Positions 4,939-61,702 of a stretch of 64,000 nt of DNA are shown here, piece by piece. The notes under the pieces were generated by a model that saw only the letters and a program-made list of their open reading frames with translations, did not search any database and was not told where the DNA came from. The DNA lies in contig OZ024741.1 in assembly GCA_964016885.1 (NCBI GenBank), positions 301,444,001 to 301,508,000 of the forward strand. The letters are read 5' to 3'. The position numbers and the translations under genes are program-made. Within the stretch, counting starts at the first letter, position 1. The number at the start of each line of letters is the position of its first letter. Origin of the DNA: Eledone cirrhosa (lineage: Eukaryota).

Positions 4939-7009
4939 ATGGACATGGTTATACGGAACAGGAGGGACAACCGTACGAATGCCCATGCGCAGAAACCGTC
5001 GGTTCACACAGGTAATACTAAAAAGCGTGTGAGAGGTGTAAGGGAGATAACTGCGAAAGTCCGAAAAGTTTCTAGTTGATAAGAAAATACCACTTTCGAC
5101 AACATCACTTTCCGCCACCTGGCCCATAACGCTATTACTTCCAAATATAAGAAAGCTAACCCTATGACCTACCACGACATTAATACAGAAGTCAAAGAAC
5201 TTGCCGCCGCTCTTAAGGTAGATAAGAAGCTCAATCTCTACCTAAGAGGGAGGCGTCCCTCACCCTGAAAGATAACAAGGTAAACTTTACTTCTAACCCC
5301 ACATGTAGACTAATAAACCCGGCACGCACAGATATGTGACTAGTCAGTAAGGCCATACTTAGAAACATAGTTAAGACCATTAGGACCAAGTCCAACCTTT
5401 CCCAGTGGGAGAACAGCGACTCCGTAATTAAGTGGTTCAACTCCTTCAAATCCAAAAAAACGAAGTTCACGCAGTTCGACATTGTTGATTTTTACCCGTC
5501 GATCTCAGAGACCCTGTTAAACAAAGCGTTGGACTTCGCTACCACTTACACTACCGTCGATGGTTTAGACAGGGAAATCATCGCTCACTGCCGGAAAACC
5601 CTCCACTGCCGGAAAACGACTGAGTAGCCTGGGCAAAAAAGTCAACAACTTCAGACCTATTCCACGCCTCCATGGGATCGTTTGACAGTGCTGACGTATG
5701 CGACTTGCTTGGCCTATTTATTTTAGATATATTACGTGTTAGATTCCCGGACTTCCACACGGGAATATACCGCGACGACGGACTGACCTTATCGAGCCAT
5801 AAAAGTGTTCACGACCTCGACCGGTTTAAAAAAGATGAGCTTCTATCTTCATTGAGTTAGGACTTAGGATAACAGTAGCTACCAACCTCTCTAGCGTAGA
5901 TTTCTTAGACATTAATTTAGACCTTCGCACACACACCTACAGACCCTTACATAAGCTAAACGAAAAACTCAATTACATTCACAAGGACTCATGCCACCCT
6001 CCCACTGTTTTTAGAAACTTCGTAAATAATATCAGTACTAGAATCTCAAACCTCTCATCTAATAAGGCTATCTTTGACAGGGCAGCGCCCTACTATAACA
6101 CGGCGTTAGCTAACAACGGCTTCTCACAACCTATCACTTACTCTCCCACTATCAACAACAGCAATAAGAAAAGTAAGCGTAACAATAGACAAACTATCTG
6201 GTTCTCTCCTCCCTTCTCACTCAACGTTAAAACCAATGTAGGCCAAAAATGTCTAGCCCTCTTAGATAAACACTTTCCCATAAGCCATAAATACCGCTCC
6301 ATCTTTAACCGACACAAATAAAAACTAGGACACTCCTGCACTAAGAACATGAAGGCCCACATCACCAACAGCCCTAAGAGCAACATCCTACCAGGGTGCT
6401 CTTGCCGTAAGCCCGAAGCTTGTCCCCTTCAACAACAATGCAACACACCCGCTGTAATTTATGAAGCTGTGGTCACTTCCAACCGACACAATCTACCACA
6501 GGAGATCAAATCCTATGTGAGTATGGCGGAGGGCCGATTTAAGGAACGCTTCCTGAACCACCAGTCGACCTTTAGGTACCCGGATAGACGTTCATCCACG
6601 AAACTCGCGAGCCACGTATGGTCCCTCAAGGACTCAAGTATATACTACTCCATTCAATGGAAAGCCATCACTAAGCCCAAGCCATACGCAAGGGGAAATC
6701 CGTCGCGTGGATTATGTATTGATGAACGAATAAATATTGTAAAGAGATTATGCAATAGTGATTGCCTTAACACGAGAAATGAATTCTTCACACGTTGTCC
6801 ACACGTCTCGAAACACCTCTTACATAATACAAAGCTCCGGATTGAATTACAACATCCTAATTTTCTTATCAACTAGAAACTTTTCGGACTTTTGCAGTTA
6901 TCTCCCTTACACCTCTCGCACGCTTTTTAGTATTGCCTGTGTGAAGTGACGGTTTCTGCGCATGCGCGTTCGTACGGTTGTCCTTCCTGTTCCGTATAAC
7001 CATGTCCAT

Positions 7010-7052
7010 TACCAGCTGAGGATCCGTTAAGGTGAAACAATTGTTCTCAGTA
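7010..7052 (+). ncRNA. Minimal type I hammerhead ribozyme in 3' pLTR
   Basis: taccag-CTGAGGA-tccgttaaggt-GAAAC-aatt-GTT-ctcagta. Stem I is partly mutated relative to the 4896 copy. Confidence 0.7.
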
Positions 7053-13349: not shown

Positions 13350-13535
13350 GATAAATCTACCAAGAGTTTACGGTAGTGTCCAATCCGTATGAAGAACTCA
13401 ATGTATTCCGGATATCATGGAAAGAAGAGATGTAATGAAAATCCACTTTCGGTGAAAGATAAACGGTATACAGAGTCAAGATAAAATATTAAACAAATAA
13501 TGAATAAAACAATTCCTTATATTAAACAAAAAAAG

Positions 13536-13690
13536 TTCATTATTTAACGATCGTTTCTAGGGTATATATGTGTTATAATTGGTATGCATATTCAACAGAT
13601 CTATGTACAAAATTATACAAAATTATACAAATTATCAAGATTAAATATACATACCTAACACATATATACGCCGTCTTCAGAAATAATGAA
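13536..13690 (-). ncRNA. Hammerhead ribozyme with about 116-nt stem II insertion
   Basis: Mirror copy of 22877-23031. Confidence 0.8.
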
Positions 13691-14509
13691 GTATATTTAT
13701 TGATAATAACAACAATTCAAAATATCAGTTCAAAATTGACCAATGAAAACACAAAGGGTTAAAAGCAGTTCGGTGTGTGTATATACATGTAAAATCCTTA
13801 CACATATTTTACAAAAATGTGTGTATAATTTGTATACGCATACTAAAAAGATGGATGCAAACACAAAATTTCAAGGTTAATATCTCTGTAAGCTTAATGC
13901 GCTGATAAGATGTGCATTGATACTTATGGAGTCAAGCATATAAATATATTTTTTCATACTCACACATATCAGTATAATCACACATACATGCGCGTATATG
14001 CCTAAATATACACATAACCACGAACATACAAACACACACACTCCCCCACTCACATTTATATATGTGGATATAAAATCATAAGCACATAGAAATTAAATCA
14101 CTCACATAAAACACTGGCACACACATTTCAAGATCAAGATACAGAAATTAGGTGGGAGGGGGGGAGGAGGGGGAAGGGTCAGTATTCAATTGTCTGAGCA
14201 GACTGCCTAATATAAATGTATCTATAAATTAAGAAAAATAAAAAAATAAAACAATAAAATATAAAATAATATACATACACATACAGATATATATACACAC
14301 ATACATACATGTACGCGCACATAGAGATATTTACGCATACACATATACACACATACATATACAGTCATACACACACATACACTTACACGAACATACACAT
14401 ACACATATAAAAAGATATATATATACACACACACACGCGCAACACATACACACATACACATATATATAAAAAATAGATAATAAAGATATATATCCATATA
14501 TATATATAT

Positions 14510-14578
<69 letters not shown>

Positions 14579-14667
14579 TATACACATACATACACATACA
14601 TCTAAATATACATACACATACATACACACATACATGTACATACATGTACATACATATACGCACATCG

Positions 14668-14713
<46 letters not shown>

Positions 14714-15530
14714 TCACATAGACATATAGATACATACACACACAACTTACATACTCACGTATATATATATATATATAGATGTACCTTCATACATAGAATT
14801 AGATATATAATCATACATACATATGCACCTACTTATACTCATATATATAAATATATACGCTTCCATATATATGTATATACATAAAAAACAATACAACCTC
14901 ACCAAACTCAGACATACAAATAAAAATAATAATAAAAAGGCATATGTATATACATACACACACGCATTAATAGAGATATATATATATATACACATACATA
15001 CACACATATATATATATACACACATATATATACACATACATATATATATACATATACATATATATATATATATACACACACATAGACTCATACATATATA
15101 TATATATATATATATATAAACATATATATCCACACACTCATACCACCATAAATACACATACAAACACCCACATGCATATATATATATATATATCTATATA
15201 CACATACGTATATATATATACATATATATACATATATATATATATATACACACACATAAAAAACAGACATGCACATATATATATATATATATATATTTTA
15301 TTACCCTTATATATACACACATTACATATACATACACAACCTCACTTATACACATATACACATAAGTTATATTATAATAATAAAGAATAATATACATATA
15401 TATATATACATATACATATATATATATATATATATATACATACATACATACACATACATACATACACATAAATATATATATACATAAATACACACATACG
15501 AATAAAGATATATATTCACACATAGACACC

Positions 15531-15567
<37 letters not shown>

Positions 15568-16770
15568 ATATACATATATACACATATATATATATATATA
15601 TATATACACATACACACACACACACACACACAGACACACATACACACTCACATATATATATATATGTGTGTATGTGTGTGTGCGCACATACACATATATA
15701 CACACACACATACAAACACACACAAACACATACATATGCATACGTGCACACACACACACATATATCACATAGATACGAAGATAAACATATAAATAGAGAG
15801 ACATACATATATATACACAACACACATATACATACACATACATACACGCATATACATATACATACATATATACACATATATATATTCCTATATATACAAG
15901 CATACACATACATACACATATATACACATATATACACATATACATACAACACATTCACATACACATACATATATAATGCATATATATACATATATATACA
16001 TACATATGTATGTACAATCATATATACACACACAATCTTACATTCATATTTGCATGCTCATATATGTATTTTTATATTTAGATATAAATACCCAAATCTA
16101 TATAGACACCTACCTACACATATATTCATACATAGACGCTTACAAATACAGATGATAATAGTATGGGGGAAAGGGGGGGTTTGGAGAAGGGGATCAAAGT
16201 AAATATATGTTTCGAGAAACATATAATATTTTCCGTATCTTAATTCAATGTATGTTCTTACATATTTTCAGTGCTAGGAAATACGAAATCTATGCATCTC
16301 AAAATAAATAAGTATACCATTAATCATATGTTAACTAAACCAAAGATAGTCAACATATTGATTTCTAAGGTGTAAATTAGTTAGGTTTATAATATTTGAA
16401 GCAGAATTTTGAAGTCAAACAGTAGTAGATTATTAATTACAGTATAACTAAATTAAAGTTAATAACGTTATGGTATCAATATTAGGAGATGAATTTAGTA
16501 ATAGGGAAAAGAAACCCAAATAAAAATAAAATAAAGTATTACATCGGTAGTAGCATATAAATTATATGTTAACTAAATTAAAAATTATATATTTATTTCA
16601 ATAGTATACGTTAATTAGTATATGTTAATTAGGTATACAATACATAAAGCAGATATTGTATTTCATCAATAGCATAATATAATTATATGCAAATAGAAAT
16701 CAAAATTAATACGCATACATATACATATACATACACATACACATATACATACATATACACACATATATAC

Positions 16771-16801
<31 letters not shown>

Positions 16802-17326
16802 CACATATATACATACATACAGATACACATACACAACACACACATATACATACTCATATACATATACATATCTTTTTCAAAAAATTGCACAGAATATTAA
16901 CTAGGTATATATCCAAAACACATCCCATTCTATGATTACATGACATTCTGCAATTCGTCTGTATAAGGATACTAATTTTAAGCAAATTAAAATTAAAATT
17001 TTTAGGTTGATTAAAACTAAAACCAAATAATAAATATATTTCCAAAATGTATATTAATTAGGTCTATAATACTAAAAATTATTTCTCCGTCATTGGAAAC
17101 ATGATATTATTTTGCTATATTTTATCTGTAAAAGAATTATAATAAAAGGTTTAAATAAATTAAAATTAATCTATAAATTAAATTACTAAGTATATATTAG
17201 TAATATTTAAAGGTTTTTCACAATTTATGATTACATAATATTTTCTCATCTGTAATAAAATATTAATTAAATTAAATTTATAGGTTAACTAACATTTAAA
17301 TTAAATTAATATCTAGAATAATGTTA

Positions 17327-18860
17327 TTAATTAGGTTTATAATATTTAAATGTTTTTTTTAGTTTATGATTACACGATATAATTAATTCCTGTCGTTTAT
17401 TTAATAAGATATCCTTAGACTTCATTATTTCAAATAGTTCTTGGGAACATAATCTACATTCCTTTCTATTATTTTGATAAGGGGTGGCTCTTTTGAGCAC
17501 ACTCCAGGTCAAATCATATTTTATATTCTTATTTTTATAACTATTGATTTTTTCTGCTAGAGATGTTGTATTAGCCAGTGCGGCATTTTTAAAACTATGC
17601 TTGTGGGTATTAAACCTTGTCTTAAAATTGTTAGAGGTAGCTCCTATATATGAGCAAATAGAATCTTTAGTTTTAACATTACATTTATAGACTATGTTGT
17701 TAACAAGACAATTCCCTTTTAATGGGCAGTTTGTTTTGTTTCTACAGTTACATCCTTTCGTTAATTCTGTATTTGAGGAGATATTATTGTTAATTTGATG
17801 TACTGGTGGTATACTTATGGTTTTCTTACATTTATATGCATTATATGCACTTATATTTTGTTTTATGTTATTTGTTGTAGAGTATGAGAATTTAACTGTA
17901 GACCTATTTAAGATTTGATGGTATTTGTGGTTTGGCGGGAAGTTTTTCTCAAGGATATAAAAAAATTTTTTAGCAATATTATCCTTAACTTGTAAATTAA
18001 AAGGAGCATTATACCAAGTAACTCGTCTATTACGGTTTCTATGTTGTTTATTATTTTTATTATTTTTATAGGTTGTATCATGATTTTTACTAGGAGGATT
18101 AATGTTAATGATCTCACCACAACTATTTTTAGTTATATTTGTAGATTTAGGTGTTTTATCTTTTTTATTAGGAGTTTTATTATTAATATTTATTATAGTT
18201 GTATGATGAGTAGTTTTTTGAGGGTTACTATACTTTATATTAGAAGATTTAGTATTTTGGGGTATATTGTGGGTGGCATTTAGGTGTGTACTTTTCATTT
18301 GGTGTTTGTTGGTAATATTATGCTGTATGTTTTCAGTATTTTTAGTAGAAGGTATATACTCTAATCTATTTTTGTGGCCACTTCTATCTAGAGCTTCATT
18401 ATAAAAGGTCGCATTTTTATCAAATACATCTTGGTTAGAAGAAAGGTTAGAAATTCTAAGTGATATATTATATGCAAGGTTTTTAAGGATAGATTTAGGG
18501 TGATTAGATTGTGAGTGTATGTAATGTAAGTTTTGGTTAGGTTTATGGTAAGGTTGGTATATACCCGTAGCTAAATCTAAAGTTATATCTAGGAAATTTA
18601 CTACTTTACTTGTTTTTTCAAAAGTAATATTAAGATTATAATAGTCTTTAAGGAAAGTTCTAATATGTTTTTTGTTTTTTTCGATTTCTGAAAGGCTAAG
18701 GTTGTTAGAAAGAAGAAGACAGTCATCACGATATAAACCACCTTTGAGGTGGGGAAAAGAGGCATTTATGTTGAAAAGGAGAAAGAGGCCCACAAGATCA
18801 GTAATTTGGGCGGAATCGCTTGAACCCATAGTAATATCAAAAAGATTACTGTATGTGTTT
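17327..18860 (-). CDS. 5'-truncated but uninterrupted Naiad RT (C-terminal part) + GIY-YIG endonuclease
   Basis: 518-aa ORF with FDITMGSSDSAQITDLVGLF, GLYRDDCL, VNFLDITLDL, WYNAPF, CNCRNKTNCPLKGNC, VYKC...YIGAT..FKTRFNTH, CRLC and LLNKRQE. The listed start lies in the inverted arm and is not genuine. Confidence 0.9.
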
Positions 18861-18861
18861 T

Positions 18862-19250
18862 GGAATTGTCTTGTTAACAACATAGTCTATAAATGTAATG
18901 TTAAAACTAAAGATTCTATTTGCTCATATATAGGAGCTACCTCTAACAATTTTAAGACAAGGTTTAATACCCACAAGCATAGTTTTAAAAATGCCGCACT
19001 GGCTAATACAACATCTCTAGCAGAAAAAATCAATAGTTATAAAAATAAGAATATAAAATATGATTTGACCTGGAGTGTGCTCAAAAGAGCCACCCCTTAT
19101 CAAAATAATAGAAAGGAATGTAGATTATGTTCCCAAGAACTATTTGAAATAATGAAGTCTAAGGATATCTTATTAAATAAACGACAGGAATTAATTATAT
19201 CGTGTAATCATAAACTAAAAAAAACATTTAAATATTATAAACCTAATTAA
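18862..19250 (+). pseudogene. Inverted duplicate of the GIY-YIG domain (start of inverted arm)
   Basis: Translation is identical to the C-terminus of 17327-18883, from NCLVNNIVYKC to FKYYKPN. Confidence 0.92.
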
Positions 19251-19775
19251 TAACATTATTCTAGATATTAATTTAATTTAAATGTTAGTTAACCTATAAA
19301 TTTAATTTAATTAATATTTTATTACAGATGAGAAAATATTATGTAATCATAAATTGTGAAAAACCTTTAAATATTACTAATATATACTTAGTAATTTAAT
19401 TTATAGATTAATTTTAATTTATTTAAACCTTTTATTATAATTCTTTTACAGATAAAATATAGCAAAATAATATCATGTTTCCAATGACGGAGAAATAATT
19501 TTTAGTATTATAGACCTAATTAATATACATTTTGGAAATATATTTATTATTTGGTTTTAGTTTTAATCAACCTAAAAATTTTAATTTTAATTTGCTTAAA
19601 ATTAGTATCCTTATACAGACGAATTGCAGAATGTCATGTAATCATAGAATGGGATGTGTTTTGGATATATACCTAGTTAATATTCTGTGCAATTTTTTGA
19701 AAAAGATATGTATATGTATATGAGTATGTATATGTGTGTGTTGTGTATGTGTATCTGTATGTATGTATATATGTG

Positions 19776-19818
<43 letters not shown>

Positions 19819-21857
19819 GTGTATATGTATGTATATGTGTATGTGTATGTATATGTATATGTATGCGTATTAATTTTGATTTCTATTTGCATATAATTAT
19901 ATTATGCTATTGATGAAATACAATATCTGCTTTATGTATTGTATACCTAATTAACATATACTAATTAACGTATACTATTGAAATAAATATATAATTTTTA
20001 ATTTAGTTAACATATAATTTATATGCTACTACCGATGTAATACTTTATTTTATTTTTATTTGGGTTTCTTTTCCCTATTACTAAATTCATCTCCTAATAT
20101 TGATACCATAACGTTATTAACTTTAATTTAGTTATACTGTAATTAATAATCTACTACTGTTTGACTTCAAAATTCTGCTTCAAATATTATAAACCTAACT
20201 AATTTACACCTTAGAAATCAATATGTTGACTATCTTTGGTTTAGTTAACATATGATTAATGGTATACTTATTTATTTTGAGATGCATAGATTTCGTATTT
20301 CCTAGCACTGAAAATATGTAAGAACATACATTGAATTAAGATACGGAAAATATTATATGTTTCTCGAAACATATATTTACTTTGATCCCCTTCTCCAAAC
20401 CCCCCCTTTCCCCCATACTATTATCATCTGTATTTGTAAGCGTCTATGTATGAATATATGTGTAGGTAGGTGTCTATATAGATTTGGGTATTTATATCTA
20501 AATATAAAAATACATATATGAGCATGCAAATATGAATGTAAGATTGTGTGTGTATATATGATTGTACATACATATGTATGTATATATATGTATATATATG
20601 CATTATATATGTATGTGTATGTGAATGTGTTGTATGTATATGTGTATATATGTGTATATATGTGTATGTATGTGTATGCTTGTATATATAGGAATATATA
20701 TATGTGTATATATGTATGTATATGTATATGCGTGTATGTATGTGTATGTATATGTGTGTTGTGTATATATATGTATGTCTCTCTATTTATATGTTTATCT
20801 TCGTATCTATGTGATATATGTGTGTGTGTGTGCACGTATGCATATGTATGTGTTTGTGTGTGTTTGTATGTGTGTGTGTATATATGTGTATGTGCGCACA
20901 CACACATACACATATATATATATATATGTGAGTGTGTATGTGTGTCTGTGTGTGTGTGTGTGTGTGTATGTGTATATATATATATATATATATATGTGTA
21001 TATATGTATATAGATATATATATATATATATATATGTAGGTGTCTATGTGTGAATATATATCTTTATTCGTATGTGTGTATTTATGTATGTATATATTTA
21101 TGTGTATGTATGTATGTGTATGTATGTATGTATATATATATATATATATATATGTATATGTATATATATATATGTATATTATTCTTTATTATTATAATAT
21201 AACTTATGTGTATATGTGTATAAGTGAGGTTGTGTATGTATATGTAATGTGTGTATATATAAGGGTAATAAAATATATATATATATATATATATGTGCAT
21301 GTCTGTTTTTTATGTGTGTGTATATATATATATATATGTATATATATGTATATATATATACGTGTGTGTATATAGATATATATATATATATATGCATGTG
21401 GGTGTTTGTATGTGTATTTATGGTGGTATGAGTGTGTGGATATATATGTTTATATATATATATATATATATATATGTATGAGTCTATGTGTGTGTATATA
21501 TATATATATATGTATATGTATATATATATGTATGTGTATATATATGTGTGTATATATATATATATGTGTGTATGTATGTGTATATATATATATATCTCTA
21601 TTAATGCGTGTGTGTATGTATATACATATGCCTTTTTATTATTATTTTTATTTGTATGTCTGAGTTTGGTGAGGTTGTATTGTTTTTTATGTATATACAT
21701 ATATATGGAAGCGTATATATTTATATATATGAGTATAAGTAGGTGCATATGTATGTATGATTATATATCTAATTCTATGTATGAAGGTACATCTATATAT
21801 ATATATATATACGTGAGTATGTAAGTTGTGTGTGTATGTATCTATATGTCTATGTGA

Positions 21858-21903
<46 letters not shown>

Positions 21904-21992
21904 CGATGTGCGTATATGTATGTACATGTATGTACATGTATGTGTGTATGTATGTGTATGTATATTTAGATGTATGTGTATGTATGTGTATA

Positions 21993-22057
<65 letters not shown>

Positions 22058-22876
22058 ATATATATATATATGGATATATATCTTTATTATCTATTTTTTA
22101 TATATATGTGTATGTGTGTATGTGTTGCGCGTGTGTGTGTGTATATATATATCTTTTTATATGTGTATGTGTATGTTCGTGTAAGTGTATGTGTGTGTAT
22201 GACTGTATATGTATGTGTGTATATGTGTATGCGTAAATATCTCTATGTGCGCGTACATGTATGTATGTGTGTATATATATCTGTATGTGTATGTATATTA
22301 TTTTATATTTTATTGTTTTATTTTTTTATTTTTCTTAATTTATAGATACATTTATATTAGGCAGTCTGCTCAGACAATTGAATACTGACCCTTCCCCCTC
22401 CTCCCCCCCTCCCACCTAATTTCTGTATCTTGATCTTGAAATGTGTGTGCCAGTGTTTTATGTGAGTGATTTAATTTCTATGTGCTTATGATTTTATATC
22501 CACATATATAAATGTGAGTGGGGGAGTGTGTGTGTTTGTATGTTCGTGGTTATGTGTATATTTAGGCATATACGCGCATGTATGTGTGATTATACTGATA
22601 TGTGTGAGTATGAAAAAATATATTTATATGCTTGACTCCATAAGTATCAATGCACATCTTATCAGCGCATTAAGCTTACAGAGATATTAACCTTGAAATT
22701 TTGTGTTTGCATCCATCTTTTTAGTATGCGTATACAAATTATACACACATTTTTGTAAAATATGTGTAAGGATTTTACATGTATATACACACACCGAACT
22801 GCTTTTAACCCTTTGTGTTTTCATTGGTCAATTTTGAACTGATATTTTGAATTGTTGTTATTATCAATAAATATAC

Positions 22877-23031
22877 TTCATTATTTCTGAAGACGGCGTA
22901 TATATGTGTTAGGTATGTATATTTAATCTTGATAATTTGTATAATTTTGTATAATTTTGTACATAGATCTGTTGAATATGCATACCAATTATAACACATA
23001 TATACCCTAGAAACGATCGTTAAATAATGAA
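22877..23031 (+). ncRNA. Hammerhead ribozyme with about 116-nt stem II insertion (GUU triplet)
   Basis: ttcattattt-CTGAAGA-cggcgtatatatgtgtta...taacacatatatacccta-GAAAC-gatc-GTT-aaataatgaa. Stem I is a perfect 10 bp and stem III is the palindrome CGATCG. Confidence 0.8.
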
Positions 23032-23077
23032 CTTTTTTTGTTTAATATAAGGAATTGTTTTATTCATTATTTGTTTA

Positions 23078-23352
<275 letters not shown>

Positions 23353-29415: not shown

Positions 29416-30643
29416 TTTGTGGATGTGAAGAATAAATTTAATATTCTTTTAAGATTTGAAAGTGTCTTTGGTTTTACATCATTCTTTACTTGCGCATTAA
29501 ACAGATAAGGATCTGCAAGAAAGAAAAATTAAATCTCTTCTTCTAAGTTTTATGAATTTTTTTCCAATGTTATTTGTTGTGCTTTGTTTAAGGATAATTA
29601 TTAAATAGTGAACAGAGTAAATAATAAATAGATATGTTTAGATAGAAAGAGGATCCTTGGGCAGTAATATATTTTTATTTCACATATATTCTATTTTGTC
29701 TAACCCATGTGTGGCCTCTATATTTCAGAGTATCATTAAAACGTTGAAATACATCAAACGTGTTTCGAAGCAAAATAATACATTTTGTACAAAAGTTGAA
29801 TCCTTTTCCCTTAATTCATTATTACATATAAATTGTTTACTTCTGTATATGAAACAAATCAAATTGAGAAAATTGAAAGCATTTCAATTAATAGCGCAGA
29901 AAAACATAAAATAACGGCTAAAATTATTTACTAGAAATCAAGAAACCAAGAATAAATTGATCTAGCAACTGGATTAAATATAATTATAAGCATTTCATCT
30001 AGCTTCATATGTCACTCGTTTTATTGAATATACACAAAACACAACTCTCAGCAGAAATATACTTATGGATTAGAAAATATACATCGTCAAAATATATTCA
30101 AACCGTGTATCACGTCAATGATACAAAAGTGCTATTATGTTGCAAGTTTCATTTCCTTATTTTGTTATTACTTGAAGTACATTAACAATTAAAGAAACAT
30201 GTGATTTCATTCGCTAAATCATTGCATGTTGATAACTTCAAAATGCAACGTTATTTTAATTCATCACCTCTTATCTGAATGCATTAATTGTATTTCAAAA
30301 TCAAACCTAGCAATTGAAACTATATCGAGTTGAATAAAAACTATATTAATTTGAAATATTCTTTAGGGCAAAAGTACTGATAAAAATACTAATAATATTA
30401 GAAGCATAAGGAACTTTTAGCAAAAGTGATTTTAACTTTAGCACATGGATTTAATTGGGTTTATATGATTACATGTTCATGACGAATTTCCACAAAACTG
30501 ATTATTTTTTCGTGGACCTGAAAATAAAGGAGAGAGAATTCACACGAAATACTAACTAACAGCATAGAGATATGAAAATATATATCAGATGGCATTTAAT
30601 CTTGGGTCACAACTTGTAATTAAATTCCAACTTTACTGCCATT

Positions 30644-30682
<39 letters not shown>

Positions 30683-30800
30683 TGTGTGTGTGTGTGTGTG
30701 TGTAGAAATTTCGTATTTCTAAAGGAGTACGGTTTTAGGAAGCCGTAGCTATGCAAACACCGGGGGGCTAACGCCTCTGGTGGTGTCCAGCAGAAGCAAG

Positions 30801-30855
30801 GGGGACAACCGTCTATGCATTTCAGGCTTGACTGGCCTTCGCCAGGACGATCCCT
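30801..30855 (-). ncRNA. Minimal hammerhead (core mutated CTGGCGA)
   Basis: gggatcgtc-CTGGCGA-aggc-cagtcaa-gcct-GAAAT-gc-ATA-gacggttgtccc. Confidence 0.65.
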
Positions 30856-31154
30856 CCCACCGCTTGCGACTGCTAGACTTGAAAACAGCCGAGAATATGT
30901 AGTTTTCTCGTCTGTGTAAATGAGGTGATTAATCTCATTTGCATATGAAGCTGCATAAGTTGGCTCAATTTATCATAGAAAAGAAATAAGATATCGCTTC
31001 AAGCATAGCTTTATACAATATGTTTAGAAATTTCGTATACGTTGAGCCAACTTATGCAGCTTGATATGCAAATGCGATTAATCACCTCATTTACACAGAC
31101 GAGAAAACTATATATTCTCGGCTGTTTTCAAGTCCAGCAGTCGCAAGAGGTGGG

Positions 31155-31208
31155 GGGATCCTCTGACGAAGGCCAATCAAGCCTGAAATGCATAGACGGT
31201 TGTCCCCC
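31155..31208 (+). ncRNA. Minimal hammerhead (AUA triplet, palindromic ATGCAT stem III)
   Basis: gatcct-CTGACGA-aggc-caatcaa-gcct-GAAAT-gc-ATA-gacggtt. The core is intact here, while stem I is intact in the other arm. Confidence 0.7.
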
Positions 31209-31346
31209 TTGCTTCTGCTGGACACCAACAGAGGGCGTTAGCCCCTCGGTGTTTGCATAGCTACGGCTTCCGAAAACCGTATTTCTTTAGAAATACGAAA
31301 TTTCTATACATATTGTATAAAGCAATGCTTGAAGCGAAATCTTATC

Positions 31347-31400
<54 letters not shown>

Positions 31401-31415
31401 AATAAGATTTCGCTT

Positions 31416-31485
<70 letters not shown>

Positions 31486-31919
31486 TGATGGTAGCTATGA
31501 TGCTTCCATAAGCGGTATGCCGGTTGAGCACTCTATGTTCTTACAGAACAGACTGTGATATAATGTAAAACGAAAAATCAGTGATGCATCTGAACTCAAT
31601 GTATTGTGTGTTACAACTGTTTCGCCGGCAGACAGCTCGAGACACGATCATTGTATGGATCTGTCTGATTCTGGACCTGCATGTTCGTCGGACACTTGCA
31701 ATAATTTCGGATCAAATTTTCTCACTGTGGTGTTATCGTCAAAAAACATCTTCCTCGCTTGTCCTGCTGTTGGCTGTTGTTTTTCTACGTCATCATAAAT
31801 TCTGGCCAATAGTTTCTGTCACACTGGCCATCAGCTGTCCCTCCGCCTGACACACTTCAATGAATCCATGCTGGGTTTGGTATTTCACAAGTCCACTCGC
31901 GCGCTCACACACATATACA

Positions 31920-32000: not shown

Positions 32001-33955
32001 ATGAGAGCGCAAAGAAAGAAAGCAGGGCCATAGAAAACATTAAAGCAAACCCTAAGGCCTTCTTTAAATTTGCAAAAGAAACTGCCTCGGTACACTGCAA
32101 GATTGGGCCACACTTCCATACAGAAGCTTCATTAACCGAGAATCCCCAAGAGATATGTGAAATACTGAACGAACTACAAAAGTGTGTTCACATCTCCACT
32201 GAGGCACATGCAAATAACAAAGCCAGAGGAGTTATTTGATGCCACAACACTACATGAAGAAATGGCGACCATCAACCATATAGACATAACGGAGGAGGAT
32301 GTGGTATACGCCATAGATGAAATTAGAACAGACTCAGCTGCTGGACCTGATGGATTCCCAGCAGTCCTCTTAAAAACATTTAAGCGGGCGTTAGCAACAC
32401 CACTGAAGATGTTCTTCAGAAGCTCCTTGGCTAGCGGTATACTACCCAGGAAGCTGAAAGAAGGCACAATATGCCCTATCCATAAAGGAGGTAGCAGAGC
32501 GGAGGCCAAAAACTATAGGCCAGTCTCCCTGACGTCGCATATCAGTAAAGTCATGGAGCGAGTCGTCAGAAAGAAATTGATCACTTTCCTCGAGGAAAAT
32601 GACCGCCTGACTAGCACGCAGCATGGCTTCCGCCCAGGAAGAAGCTGCCTTACACAGCTGCTACATCACTACGACTGGGTACTGAAACAACTGCTAGACA
32701 GCTCACATGTGGACGTGATATATCTTGACTTTGCGAAGGCTTTTACAAGGTCGACCACGGAATGATATGTCACAAACTACAGGGACTCGGCATAAGTGGA
32801 AAAGTAGGTGAGTGGCTGAATGACTTCTTAAAGGACAGAAGCCAGACAGTCGCAGCAAACCTCAAAGGAAACATCAATAACAAGGGACAGTCCTGGGACC
32901 ACTACAGTTTTGGGTGGCTCTCTCAGACATGCCCTCTGTAGTACATACAACATCCCTCACTAGCTATGCTGATGACACTAAGGTAGCACAGGCAATCAAA
33001 GAACCGGCTGACGCTGCCCTTTTACAACAAGATCTGGATGCCATATACAAATGGGCGGAAGAAAACAACATGCAGTTTAATGCTGGCAAATTCCAAGCCC
33101 TACATTACAAACCTGCAAACACAAATACAGTACTACACAGTTACGCAGGACCAGGAGGGACCGATATGCCCGTGTCGAAATATCGATACGAGATCTGGGC
33201 ATAGACATGAGCGATGATGCATCTTTTTCTTCACACATCATGAAAGTGGCGACAATGTGCAGACGGCTCGCTGGCTGGATCTTGAGGACTTTCCGGACAA
33301 GATACCGAGACACCATGTTGACACTATGGAGGACATTTGTCCTAATCCGCCTGGACTATTGCTCCCAGTTGTGGTCACCCCATAGTGTCAGACTAACCAC
33401 GGAGCTTGAGGCAATCCAGCGAAGCTACACCAAAAGGATTGCTACGATGAAGGAGACAAGCTACTGGGAGAGGCTAAAAGAACTGAACCTCTACTCCTTG
33501 GAACGAAGACTGGAGAGATACGCAGTGATCTACATGTGGAAAATCCTGGAGGGACTAGCACCAAACTTTGGCATTGGGAGCTGGACCAACCGTCGAACAG
33601 GACGTCACTGTGTGGTGCCAAAGGTCCCGTCTTCCACATCTAGAATAAGGAGCAGGTATTGCAATAGCCTGGGATTCAAGGGCCCTCAACTCTTCAATAA
33701 GCTGCCGAGGGATCTGAGAGATTTACATGGTGTGGAGGTGGATCTTTTCAAGAAACATCTCGACACCTTGCTATCCAGGATCCCGGATGAGCCCACAGCA
33801 AGGCACGAGGGAAACTTAAGGGCAGCAGCAACAAACTCCCTCTTACACCAGTGGCCAACCAATACAGGCTGGAGATAAAATGTGTAGCAACAAGGGCGGT
33901 ACCCCAGCATGGCCTCAGTCGGATGGCTGGAACAGATGAAAGAGTAAAAAAGAAT
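31997..33955 (+). mobile_element. 5'-truncated CR1-group LINE (RT ORF2, frameshifted)
   Basis: SAAGPDG, NYRPVSLTS, QHGFRPGRSCLTQL, VIYLDFAKAF, YADD, RLDYCSQLWSP and LYSLERR motifs. The 3' UTR ends ccccagcatggcc...aaagagtaaaaaagaat. Confidence 0.92.
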
Positions 33956-60549: not shown

Positions 60550-61690
60550 ACACTTTGGGAGGGTCATGCTGCCAATAAGAAACACACGCACCAGTTGCTT
60601 TCACTTCAATTTAATTTATTAAATATTTATAAATTTACAAATTTATAAATTTCTGGTTGGTTGGTTGGTTCCACAACCAGATAGTTGTTTATATATATAT
60701 AGTCATAGTTCTTTCGTCACACACTCTGTGACCTCTTCAGTGACTGGGGATTTCTTTCTTCGTTTCTGTGCCTTTCCTTTCTTCTATCCTACGCCATTTT
60801 GTTTGTGTGTGGGTTGCGTGCTCAGTTTGCGCATGCGCCACATCCGGGTGTCTGTGTGTGTTTGTGTTCATTTTTCTATTTTTCTATTTATATTTTTCTA
60901 TTTGTTTGTTTATTTATTTATTTATTTATTGTTGGTTGGTTGTTTGTTCTATGTGTGTGTGTGTTTTCATTTTGTCTTGTGTGTGTTTTCATTTTGTGTG
61001 TGTTTTCAATTGTAAGTTGTTTGTTCTATGTGTGTGTGTGTTTTCATTTTGTCCTTAATTGTAAGTTGTGATGTTGCTGTTCCACTCATATTTTCTATTT
61101 AATTTTGGTTTTAATTCTTTTATGCTTACTGCCTCTGTAATTTGCCTAAACATTGCGTCTTTCTTGTGTGTGGATTCTATTTTTATTTCTATGCTCTCTA
61201 ATTTACCCCTGTGTTCTATCTTAGCATGTTGGTAGAGCACAGATGATTCTTTACTATCTTGGAGGTCTCGCCAGTGTTCATTTATTCGTTCCCCTATACT
61301 ACGAGCTGTCTCACCTATGTACACTACATTTTTGTTTCTACATTGTCCTTCAGTACATCTTATGCTATATACTACATTTCTAGTTTTACAGTTAATATGG
61401 GGGCTTATTTTACAGGTTATACATTTCTTATCTATACATGAGGGTCTTTGGAACGGGTATGTCTTGCTAATAAGTGTTTTTACGGAGGTACCAGGTCTTT
61501 CTACTATCTTAATATTGAGATTATGTTTCTTTAGGGCCCTTCTAAATTTGTAGGCTAGTTCGCCTCTAGGGGTTGTATTGATGAACAATATTTTCTTATT
61601 GGCAGCATGACCCTCCCAAAGTGTAACAATATCGGTTTCAACACGCGATTTCAGATAAAGAATCTTGCTAAACAAATTCAGAAACGAAAT
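60544..61690 (-). mobile_element. 5'-truncated PLE (GIY-YIG ORF 61055 to about 61590) with pLTR and short inverted tail-bearing arm 61593-61690
   Basis: CKTRNVVYSIRC...VYIGETARSIGERINEH...RQITEAVSI...LNRKYEW. The inverted repeat covers gttacactttgggagggtcatgctgccaataagaa. Confidence 0.88.
60701..60745 (-). ncRNA. Minimal hammerhead (CUA triplet)
   Basis: agtca-CTGAAGA-ggtcaca-gagtg-tgtgac-GAAAG-aa-CTA-tgact. Confidence 0.75.
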
Positions 61691-61702
61691 ATATACATAT
61701 AT

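Follow-up and report, generated by a model that had tools for sequence, protein, structure and literature searches.

A non-coding 322-nt hammerhead repeat pair in Eledone cirrhosa, probably set down by a borrowed Penelope-like reverse transcriptase-endonuclease copying an RNA circle once from each cut end

Circular RNAs of animal retrozymes are abundant, and in the passages of the literature available to us the enzyme that copies them and the use of the circle as template are proposed rather than demonstrated. A locus of Eledone cirrhosa, within a 64,000-nt stretch of contig OZ024741.1 (the window, to which all positions refer), raises the question of what template and what enzyme could leave two inverted copies of one small hammerhead repeat, each about a unit long. 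The answer to which we incline, with moderate confidence, is that a non-coding 322-nt hammerhead repeat borrowed the reverse transcriptase (RT)-endonuclease of a Penelope-like element (PLE), which would have copied an RNA circle once from each cut end. The observed part of this is a cyclic unit, a conserved hammerhead, 3' ends lying 50 nt apart, two arm lengths and a set of common subfamily letters; the best reading of the unit is that of a putative non-autonomous PLE, in kind an animal retrozyme, whose insertion was by twin priming.

The first arm lies on the minus strand (30703-31038) and is made of one 322-nt unit plus 14 nt, stopping at what is here called 3' site 1. The same 14-nt word stands at its 3' end (30703-30716) and its 5' end (31025-31038) at a spacing of 322 nt, as the first-pass annotation had noticed, and a direct repeat of at least 14 nt appeared in none of 100 shuffles of this arm. 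Read in minus-strand order the arm runs through the 14 nt, a 50-nt tail (30975-31024) that spans the two 3' end sites and is here arm-internal, the 6 nt of the tail-to-body junction (30969-30974), the body, a type I hammerhead (30807-30852, predicted cut after 30814) and the 14 nt again. The second arm (31036-31356, plus strand) has another order, body first and tail last, and ends in (AT)n at 3' site 2, the tail end; its hammerhead is at 31156-31202 and its tail at 31307-31356, terminal at this end only. It had been taken for a near-full unit in a different permutation; the permutation holds, and the arm is a full unit, 321 nt from 31036 or 316 nt from 31041, being readable from 31036 in that five of the six letters there match the family. 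The plus arm is opened 50 nt further on than the minus arm, and the alignment of the two falls into blocks of 251/267 (94%) and 59/64 (92%) identical positions. They meet head to head on an 8-nt palindrome (31034-31041), overlapping by 3 nt (31036-31038), and at 1.04 units per arm, inverted, the locus has no two consecutive head-to-tail units.

Both arms end in microsatellite, (AT)n then (GT)n on the left (30644-30702) and, in the same order, on the right (31421-31484), an arrangement shared by 7 of the 79 (AT)n runs in the window; because the flanks are microsatellite a target-site duplication is unreadable. Beyond the plus arm comes an (AT)n run (31357-31396) and then a 24-nt inverted tail-end piece (31397-31420, minus) facing the same (AT)n as the plus arm, and so the span first given, 30703-31420, keeps its coordinates and is refined in that its last 24 nt are a separate piece. 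This piece carries the family letter at a place where the plus arm has a private one, and may belong to the same event or have entered this (AT)n as a second, tiny insertion. At the other end, the letters that come next in the element itself may have seeded the (CA)n at 30676-30702, which follows the minus arm; 132 reads of the run called X5 below show CA there as a family variant.

The unit has a GC content of 0.44 and no ORF, the longest ATG-started frame being 27 aa in sense and 34 aa in antisense with circular reading included, which bears out the early observation that the tail joins the body without an ORF. No further copy of it was found within the 64-kb window. The predicted folds of both arms are stable (z of -4.1 to -5.3, none of 60 shuffles as low, about 60% paired), and the antisense strand folds as low as the sense strand. 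In both arms an exact octamer, ATGCAAAT, is present (30937-30944, minus; 31066-31073, plus) some 90 nt upstream of the hammerhead core and followed by a TCACC word. With eight other such octamers in the window about 0.04 would be expected per unit by hand arithmetic, and the octamer is a weak lead to a possible internal promoter; newt satellite 2 reportedly uses an snRNA-type promoter, in the part of that literature available.

What kind of insertion this is can be approached from PLEs, whose insertions are described as having an inverted arm and a tail at one end (Arkhipova 2013, PMC3846280; Craig 2021, PMC8557442), the one-sided tail being described as peculiar to them in the passages at hand. 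According to the accessible parts of a study of an anole PLE (Frangieh 2024, PMC11167929), its protein cleaves AT-rich DNA on both strands and extends them, and reverse transcription starts at two internal sites, the stretch between which becomes the tail. As far as these three sources go, EN+ PLE insertions resemble the present one in their head-to-head arms with slight overlap and a junction palindrome, in the tail at one end with a hammerhead upstream of it, and in the AT-rich or microsatellite target. The locus has the inverted head-to-head copy, centred on its palindrome, the one-sided tail and the AT-rich target, and its two 3' ends, 111 and 161 nt past the predicted cut, both close on a similar short motif. 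It differs from those insertions in that there is no ORF and the unit's own start is what follows the tail, in a tail of 50 nt (30-40 nt is given as usual for PLEs), and in a hammerhead that is canonical rather than minimal. An RT-EN ORF next to the repeat or the tail, as coding PLEs have, is absent, the tail returning to the body here and in other copies, and no DNA similarity of the unit to coding PLE remnants was found in the window (E up to 1). Overall the sequence supports a PLE anatomy for the insertion, and the inverted-arm signature of PLEs that had been proposed for it stands, with its head-to-head arms, one-sided tail, palindrome and (TA)n target.

Whether this anatomy belongs to a family or to one accident was addressed with public sequencing runs aligned to 30703-31041 (339 nt, likeness 80), four of the seven listed for the unit, none of the seven being on record as RNA. 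X1 and X2 are contigs from one sample, X4 contigs from the same study, its kind of run unrecorded, and X5 raw RAD reads from another study; their organism is likely the species of the window, the best share of words being 0.39, as about 3% private change predicts. The interval is covered by 4247 records in X1, 4386 in X2, 43 in X4 and 1839 reads in X5, most at 90-99% identity, and since thousands of differing contigs fall on 339 nt the family must have many copies, although run depth on the unit is not copy number. The tail-to-body junction (30968/30969) is bridged by at least 31 letters on each side in 4 of the 24 records listed (X1 no. 8, X2 no. 16, X4 nos. 23 and 24; 8831 others stand beside these 24), and among raw X5 reads over 30969 the family letter is in 222 of 247, from about 53 starts. 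In X1 the depth is 69 thousand at 30969 and 44 thousand at 30974, within the range of other bins of the unit. Joints going back 322, 315 or 313 occur among the joints listed, the 322 in both X1 and X2; no listed record spans the whole unit, and tandem arrays and permuted monomers look alike in these records. These data support a unit that is cyclic across the family and a junction that is not private to the locus, and the earlier thought that the junction might be unique here fails among the rows listed, where it is bridged elsewhere and appears as a common form.

The same records bear on the proposal that a long coding PLE left the arms as remnants of its terminal repeat, in which case the joining of tail to body would be a minor or local rearrangement. 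Coding PLEs, in the passages available, usually leave as debris truncated terminal repeats that are inverted and carry a tail, and a longer relative may exist, since in a 569-nt X4 contig (record 22, 82% identity) the match stops exactly at 30968; 626 loose ends lie beyond the 24 listed. Yet none of those 24 amounts to a different, dominant sequence lying upstream of where the body starts, the junction is bridged in listed records or reads of three of the four runs, from two studies, its X1 depth is of the same order as in the rest of the unit, and no ORF follows the tail, unlike in two studied PLEs, where, as far as their descriptions go, the tail leads into the ORF's start. A coding-PLE origin of the arms is on these grounds improbable.

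At 30975 loose ends pass into (AT)n in 21 and 29 contigs, a further 263 reads leave the unit there into other flank, and in X4 one contig terminates in (AT)n at 30705; by these the tail end is a fixed 3' end in other copies. This speaks against an origin at the DNA level and without a PLE, by which a piece of satellite would have been inverted through fold-back repair or recombination, or a LINE would have twin-primed the insertion. The flanking microsatellites are unstable, the junction is a short palindrome and a LINE-type RT remnant (Pfam RVT_1) lies 0.7 kb away, all of which would suit such an origin. However the arms overlap in sequence and differ in permutation, and so are not fold-back copies. 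LINE twin priming yields non-overlapping arms, and the one-sided tail is described, in the sources at hand, as a PLE peculiarity, so that an origin of this sort seems quite improbable. That one arm was copied from the other by fold-back is rejected by their different permutations. A further X5 loose end at 31020 (107 reads) continues into a sequence that may be the start of a Helitron-type element, which it resembles.

A mis-joined or collapsed repeat in the assembly has also to be weighed, as inverted PLE structures are known, from the passages seen, to trouble assemblies, and all four runs have almost no depth at 31039-31041, the junction bin specific to the locus. Over 320 aligned columns the arms show 21 substitutions and 3 gaps against each other, whereas an artefactual palindrome would be identical, and this disfavours an artefact. 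Arms and family were compared over 32 of the 40 listed rows (the eight omitted each having less than 2% in X1; 76 further rows stand outside the list). In 9 of the 21 substitutions it is the plus arm that agrees with the family (98-100% of X1 depth), and in the remaining 12 it carries a letter other than the majority one of the family among the rows listed; at family-polymorphic sites among the rows compared the arms agree at 12 of 13, minority letters included. Each arm therefore has private changes and yet shares subfamily letters with the other, from which it follows that both come from one subfamily and decayed afterwards, and the decay since insertion would be about 3-4% per arm. An assembly artefact is by this evidence most improbable.

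A scan of both strands of the window finds hammerheads of this type only twice, at 30845 (minus) and 31163 (plus). The one in the minus arm has seven helix-I and four helix-II pairs, but a core reading CUGGCGA; the one in the plus arm has the core CUGACGA, but its helix I is broken down to 1 pair. The arms had been said to give an intact hammerhead jointly, and they do, the minus arm supplying helices I and II and the plus arm the core. The minus core letter at 30842 deviates from the family majority, 99% of X1 depth there having the letter that restores CUGACGA, and at 30850 91% of the depth gives a C-G in place of a U-G in helix I. A sister hammerhead with the core CUGAUGA can be read from the loose ends at 30823 (50 and 55 contigs); in it three of the four helix-II pairs are exchanged for other pairs and the 7-nt loop is nearly identical, and in X5 the partners 30836 and 30826 both vary (225/509 and 180/517, unphased). 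A covarying helix II with a conserved core is a pattern of selection and suggests that the fold is maintained. As a side observation, the sister family (30823-30824) and the 569-nt X4 contig are candidates for the terminal repeats of an autonomous partner.

With a helix I of 6-7 bp, a helix II of 4 bp without bulge and a weak palindromic helix III of 1-2 bp, the predicted architecture is the canonical animal type I and not the minimal PLE kind with its long bulged helix II. Position 1.7 is a U and loop 2 is closed by an A, which agrees with the known hammerhead tertiary contact. The minimal kind is that described for PLE hammerheads in the accessible part of Cervera and de la Pena 2014 (PMC4209133). 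Taken singly, helix III does not form in computation, whilst between two molecules it reaches -6.7 kcal/mol, so that cutting would need two hammerheads in one sense; the dimer-dependent HHR_Amex1 of the 331-nt axolotl retrozyme has the same need (PMC7229834, as far as seen). Rfam gives no match at gathering score in the window, and at a low threshold over 30600-31500 50 weak matches with no hammerhead among them; a miRNA hairpin, as the best of these weak matches would have it, is rejected, the models matching the inverted arms. The exact hammerhead pattern has no match in viral contigs and none in prokaryotic genomes. Two metagenome matches are rejected as relatives, sitting in contigs of 57% GC that are unlike the unit outside the pattern; they are near-identical to one another (L001 3732-3768, plus; L002 4001-4037, minus) and fit in core and helix II with no evident helix I.

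The geometry of the arms is where the nature of the template comes in. With family letters the plus arm begins at 31036, right after the tail-end position, and so amounts to one unit less one net gap. The two starts are 50 nt apart and each cDNA ends about one lap, within 15 nt, from its own start, for which the chance in both arms is 0.007-0.001 if truncation is uniform up to 400-1000 nt, a rough and post hoc figure from one locus. The 5' ends differ by 64 nt, which disfavours a fixed 5' start, and a linear RNA opened at the hammerhead cut is rejected as sole template since both arms cross the cut site. Given the tail-to-body junction the template must be head-to-tail, either a circle or a linear tandem transcript, and the one-lap arms favour the circle although a linear tandem transcript also fits. 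That the locus preserves, as a cast in genomic DNA, a circular RNA caught under reverse transcription, with the PLE enzyme priming both cut ends at the two start sites of the circle and each cDNA making one lap, is a possibility we hold tentatively and short of an even chance. To call the locus direct footprint evidence of PLE-driven mobilisation, as had been done, is too strong for one locus when the linear tandem transcript gives the same junction, and the three other opposite-strand joints, all unit-internal, among the 15 listed (36 others stand outside) do not fall at one lap and so count against the circle.

Quite how the circular route could run may be set out step by step. Head-to-tail source copies elsewhere would be transcribed, two hammerheads would pair via the palindromic helix III and cut, and the monomer would be ligated into a circle. 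A PLE protein might then cut both strands in a (TA)n tract, one cDNA starting at site 1 and one at site 2, each stalling when it meets its own start, that is its own primer end, after which the cDNA ends would be joined through the 3-nt overlap as microhomology.

The same mini-PLE and PLE enzyme could instead have used a linear template, an uncut head-to-tail transcript or template-jumped monomers, with stalling at the next protein-bound start site upstream. In the available text of the anole study (PMC11167929) hammerhead cutting is dispensable in vitro, no RNA ends are found at the cut site and the main substrate is RNA that has not been processed; partial tandems are a standard feature of PLEs in the passages seen, and non-autonomous Chlamys elements such as MRC1 form head-to-tail copies without canonical hammerheads (Craig 2021, PMC8557442, in part). 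The unbroken crossing of the predicted cut site by both arms suits this template as well. Against it, nothing obvious on a linear RNA stops both cDNAs within 15 nt of one lap, by the rough chance given above, and the hammerhead is canonical, not the minimal PLE kind, and conserved with covariation. We regard the linear template as rather unlikely, and the circle copied once from each cut end stays the preferred reading.

On that preferred reading the fate of the inserted copy is a separate matter. Both hammerheads are damaged, they lie on opposite strands and helix III works in the dimer only, and so the locus would give no circle, the copy being a predicted dead end and not a circle source. 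A read-through RNA across it would by computation form one long hairpin, 87% paired. The retrozyme traits of a type I hammerhead (by family majority), a non-coding unit of 150-450 nt, GC below 50% and a self-paired RNA (computed) are all present; two consecutive head-to-tail hammerhead units are not, and for lack of these the locus is not filed as an active retrozyme but at most as a solo derivative. The first-pass annotation's retrozyme or circular RNA candidate survives in its cyclic unit and covarying hammerhead, and falls as regards the locus itself being a source of circles. It counts against the circle that only one of nine frog retrozyme dimers was cut in vitro in the part seen of Li, Clavereau, Pollet 2026 (bioRxiv 10.64898/2026.07.22.740005).

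Among known systems the closest are the metazoan non-LTR retrozymes (Cervera and de la Pena 2020, PMC7229834), which in the accessible passages have units of 331 nt in axolotl and 350-390 nt in mussel, against 322 nt here. Both they and the present unit (GC 44%) lack an ORF, have a type I hammerhead of canonical form whose palindromic helix III is 1-2 bp long, pair stably with themselves and are cyclic units in many copies; they differ in that the locus is head-to-head with no tandem array. Those passages describe no inverted arm and tail for retrozyme insertions and name PLEs as a candidate mobiliser. In the portion of Li 2026 available, retrozyme monomers are solo units derived from PLE terminal repeats, and like our unit they are dispersed hammerhead repeats tied to PLEs; the evidence there is co-occurrence and homology to frog pLTRs, whereas here it is insertion anatomy with no partner pLTR found in the window, and the mechanism of mobilisation is stated there as open. 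A circular template was already proposed along with the PLE hammerheads (PMC4209133, in part). Chlamys MRC1 is likewise a non-coding PLE passenger with head-to-tail copies, but it is algal, the Chlamys elements are mostly without canonical hammerheads, and its 3' end resembles an autonomous partner, of which none was found here in the window (PMC8557442, as far as available). Passages of PMC7761336, PMC5680766, PMC9940879 and PMC2220036 were drawn on as well. In the accessible passages of this literature, with Repbase and most subscription papers outside its compass, neither unit-length arms nor a unit of retrozyme type having a tail and an inverted arm are described.

The link of retrozymes to PLEs is thus already in print, and the one-lap geometry is a testable extra on a known kind. 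A cyclic unit with a PLE tail, an inverted arm and one-unit arms from two starts turns the question into a simple count on the assembly, and one that bears on the role of the hammerhead in the PLE cycle. If the template is a circle, the arm lengths across family copies would reveal template topology from DNA alone and provide the missing mechanistic link between retrozyme circles and PLEs; if the arm-length count fails, this would be an ordinary non-autonomous PLE family.

Elsewhere in the window there are other PLE-like remains. Pfam GIY-YIG is found in two of ten window proteins tested, from PLE-like ORF remnants, and a 519-aa frame resembles RT/GIY-YIG clusters. A 4.2-kb inverted repeat of 99.5% identity (13481-17715 and 18862-23086) holds a PLE-like ORF (17327-18886, minus) and an inverted truncated copy of it, and after each of them comes the same non-coding DNA, rich in microsatellites, for about 3.8 kb; this may be an artefact of the assembly or else a PLE that inserted recently and has a very long 3' extension. 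At 60703-60748 (minus) a minimal PLE-type hammerhead with a bulged 6-bp helix II ends in (AT)n at the 3' end of a GIY-YIG ORF remnant (61055-61702), and at 7016-7040 (plus), downstream of a PLE-like remnant (5839-6876), hammerhead core boxes stand 11 nt apart shortly before (AT)n, with unconvincing helices. The motifs at 60740 and 7016 were considered as the hammerhead of a partner PLE and rejected for their other architectures. The LINE-type remnant near the locus is a broken reverse transcriptase at 32169-33878 (plus; E 1.3e-08).
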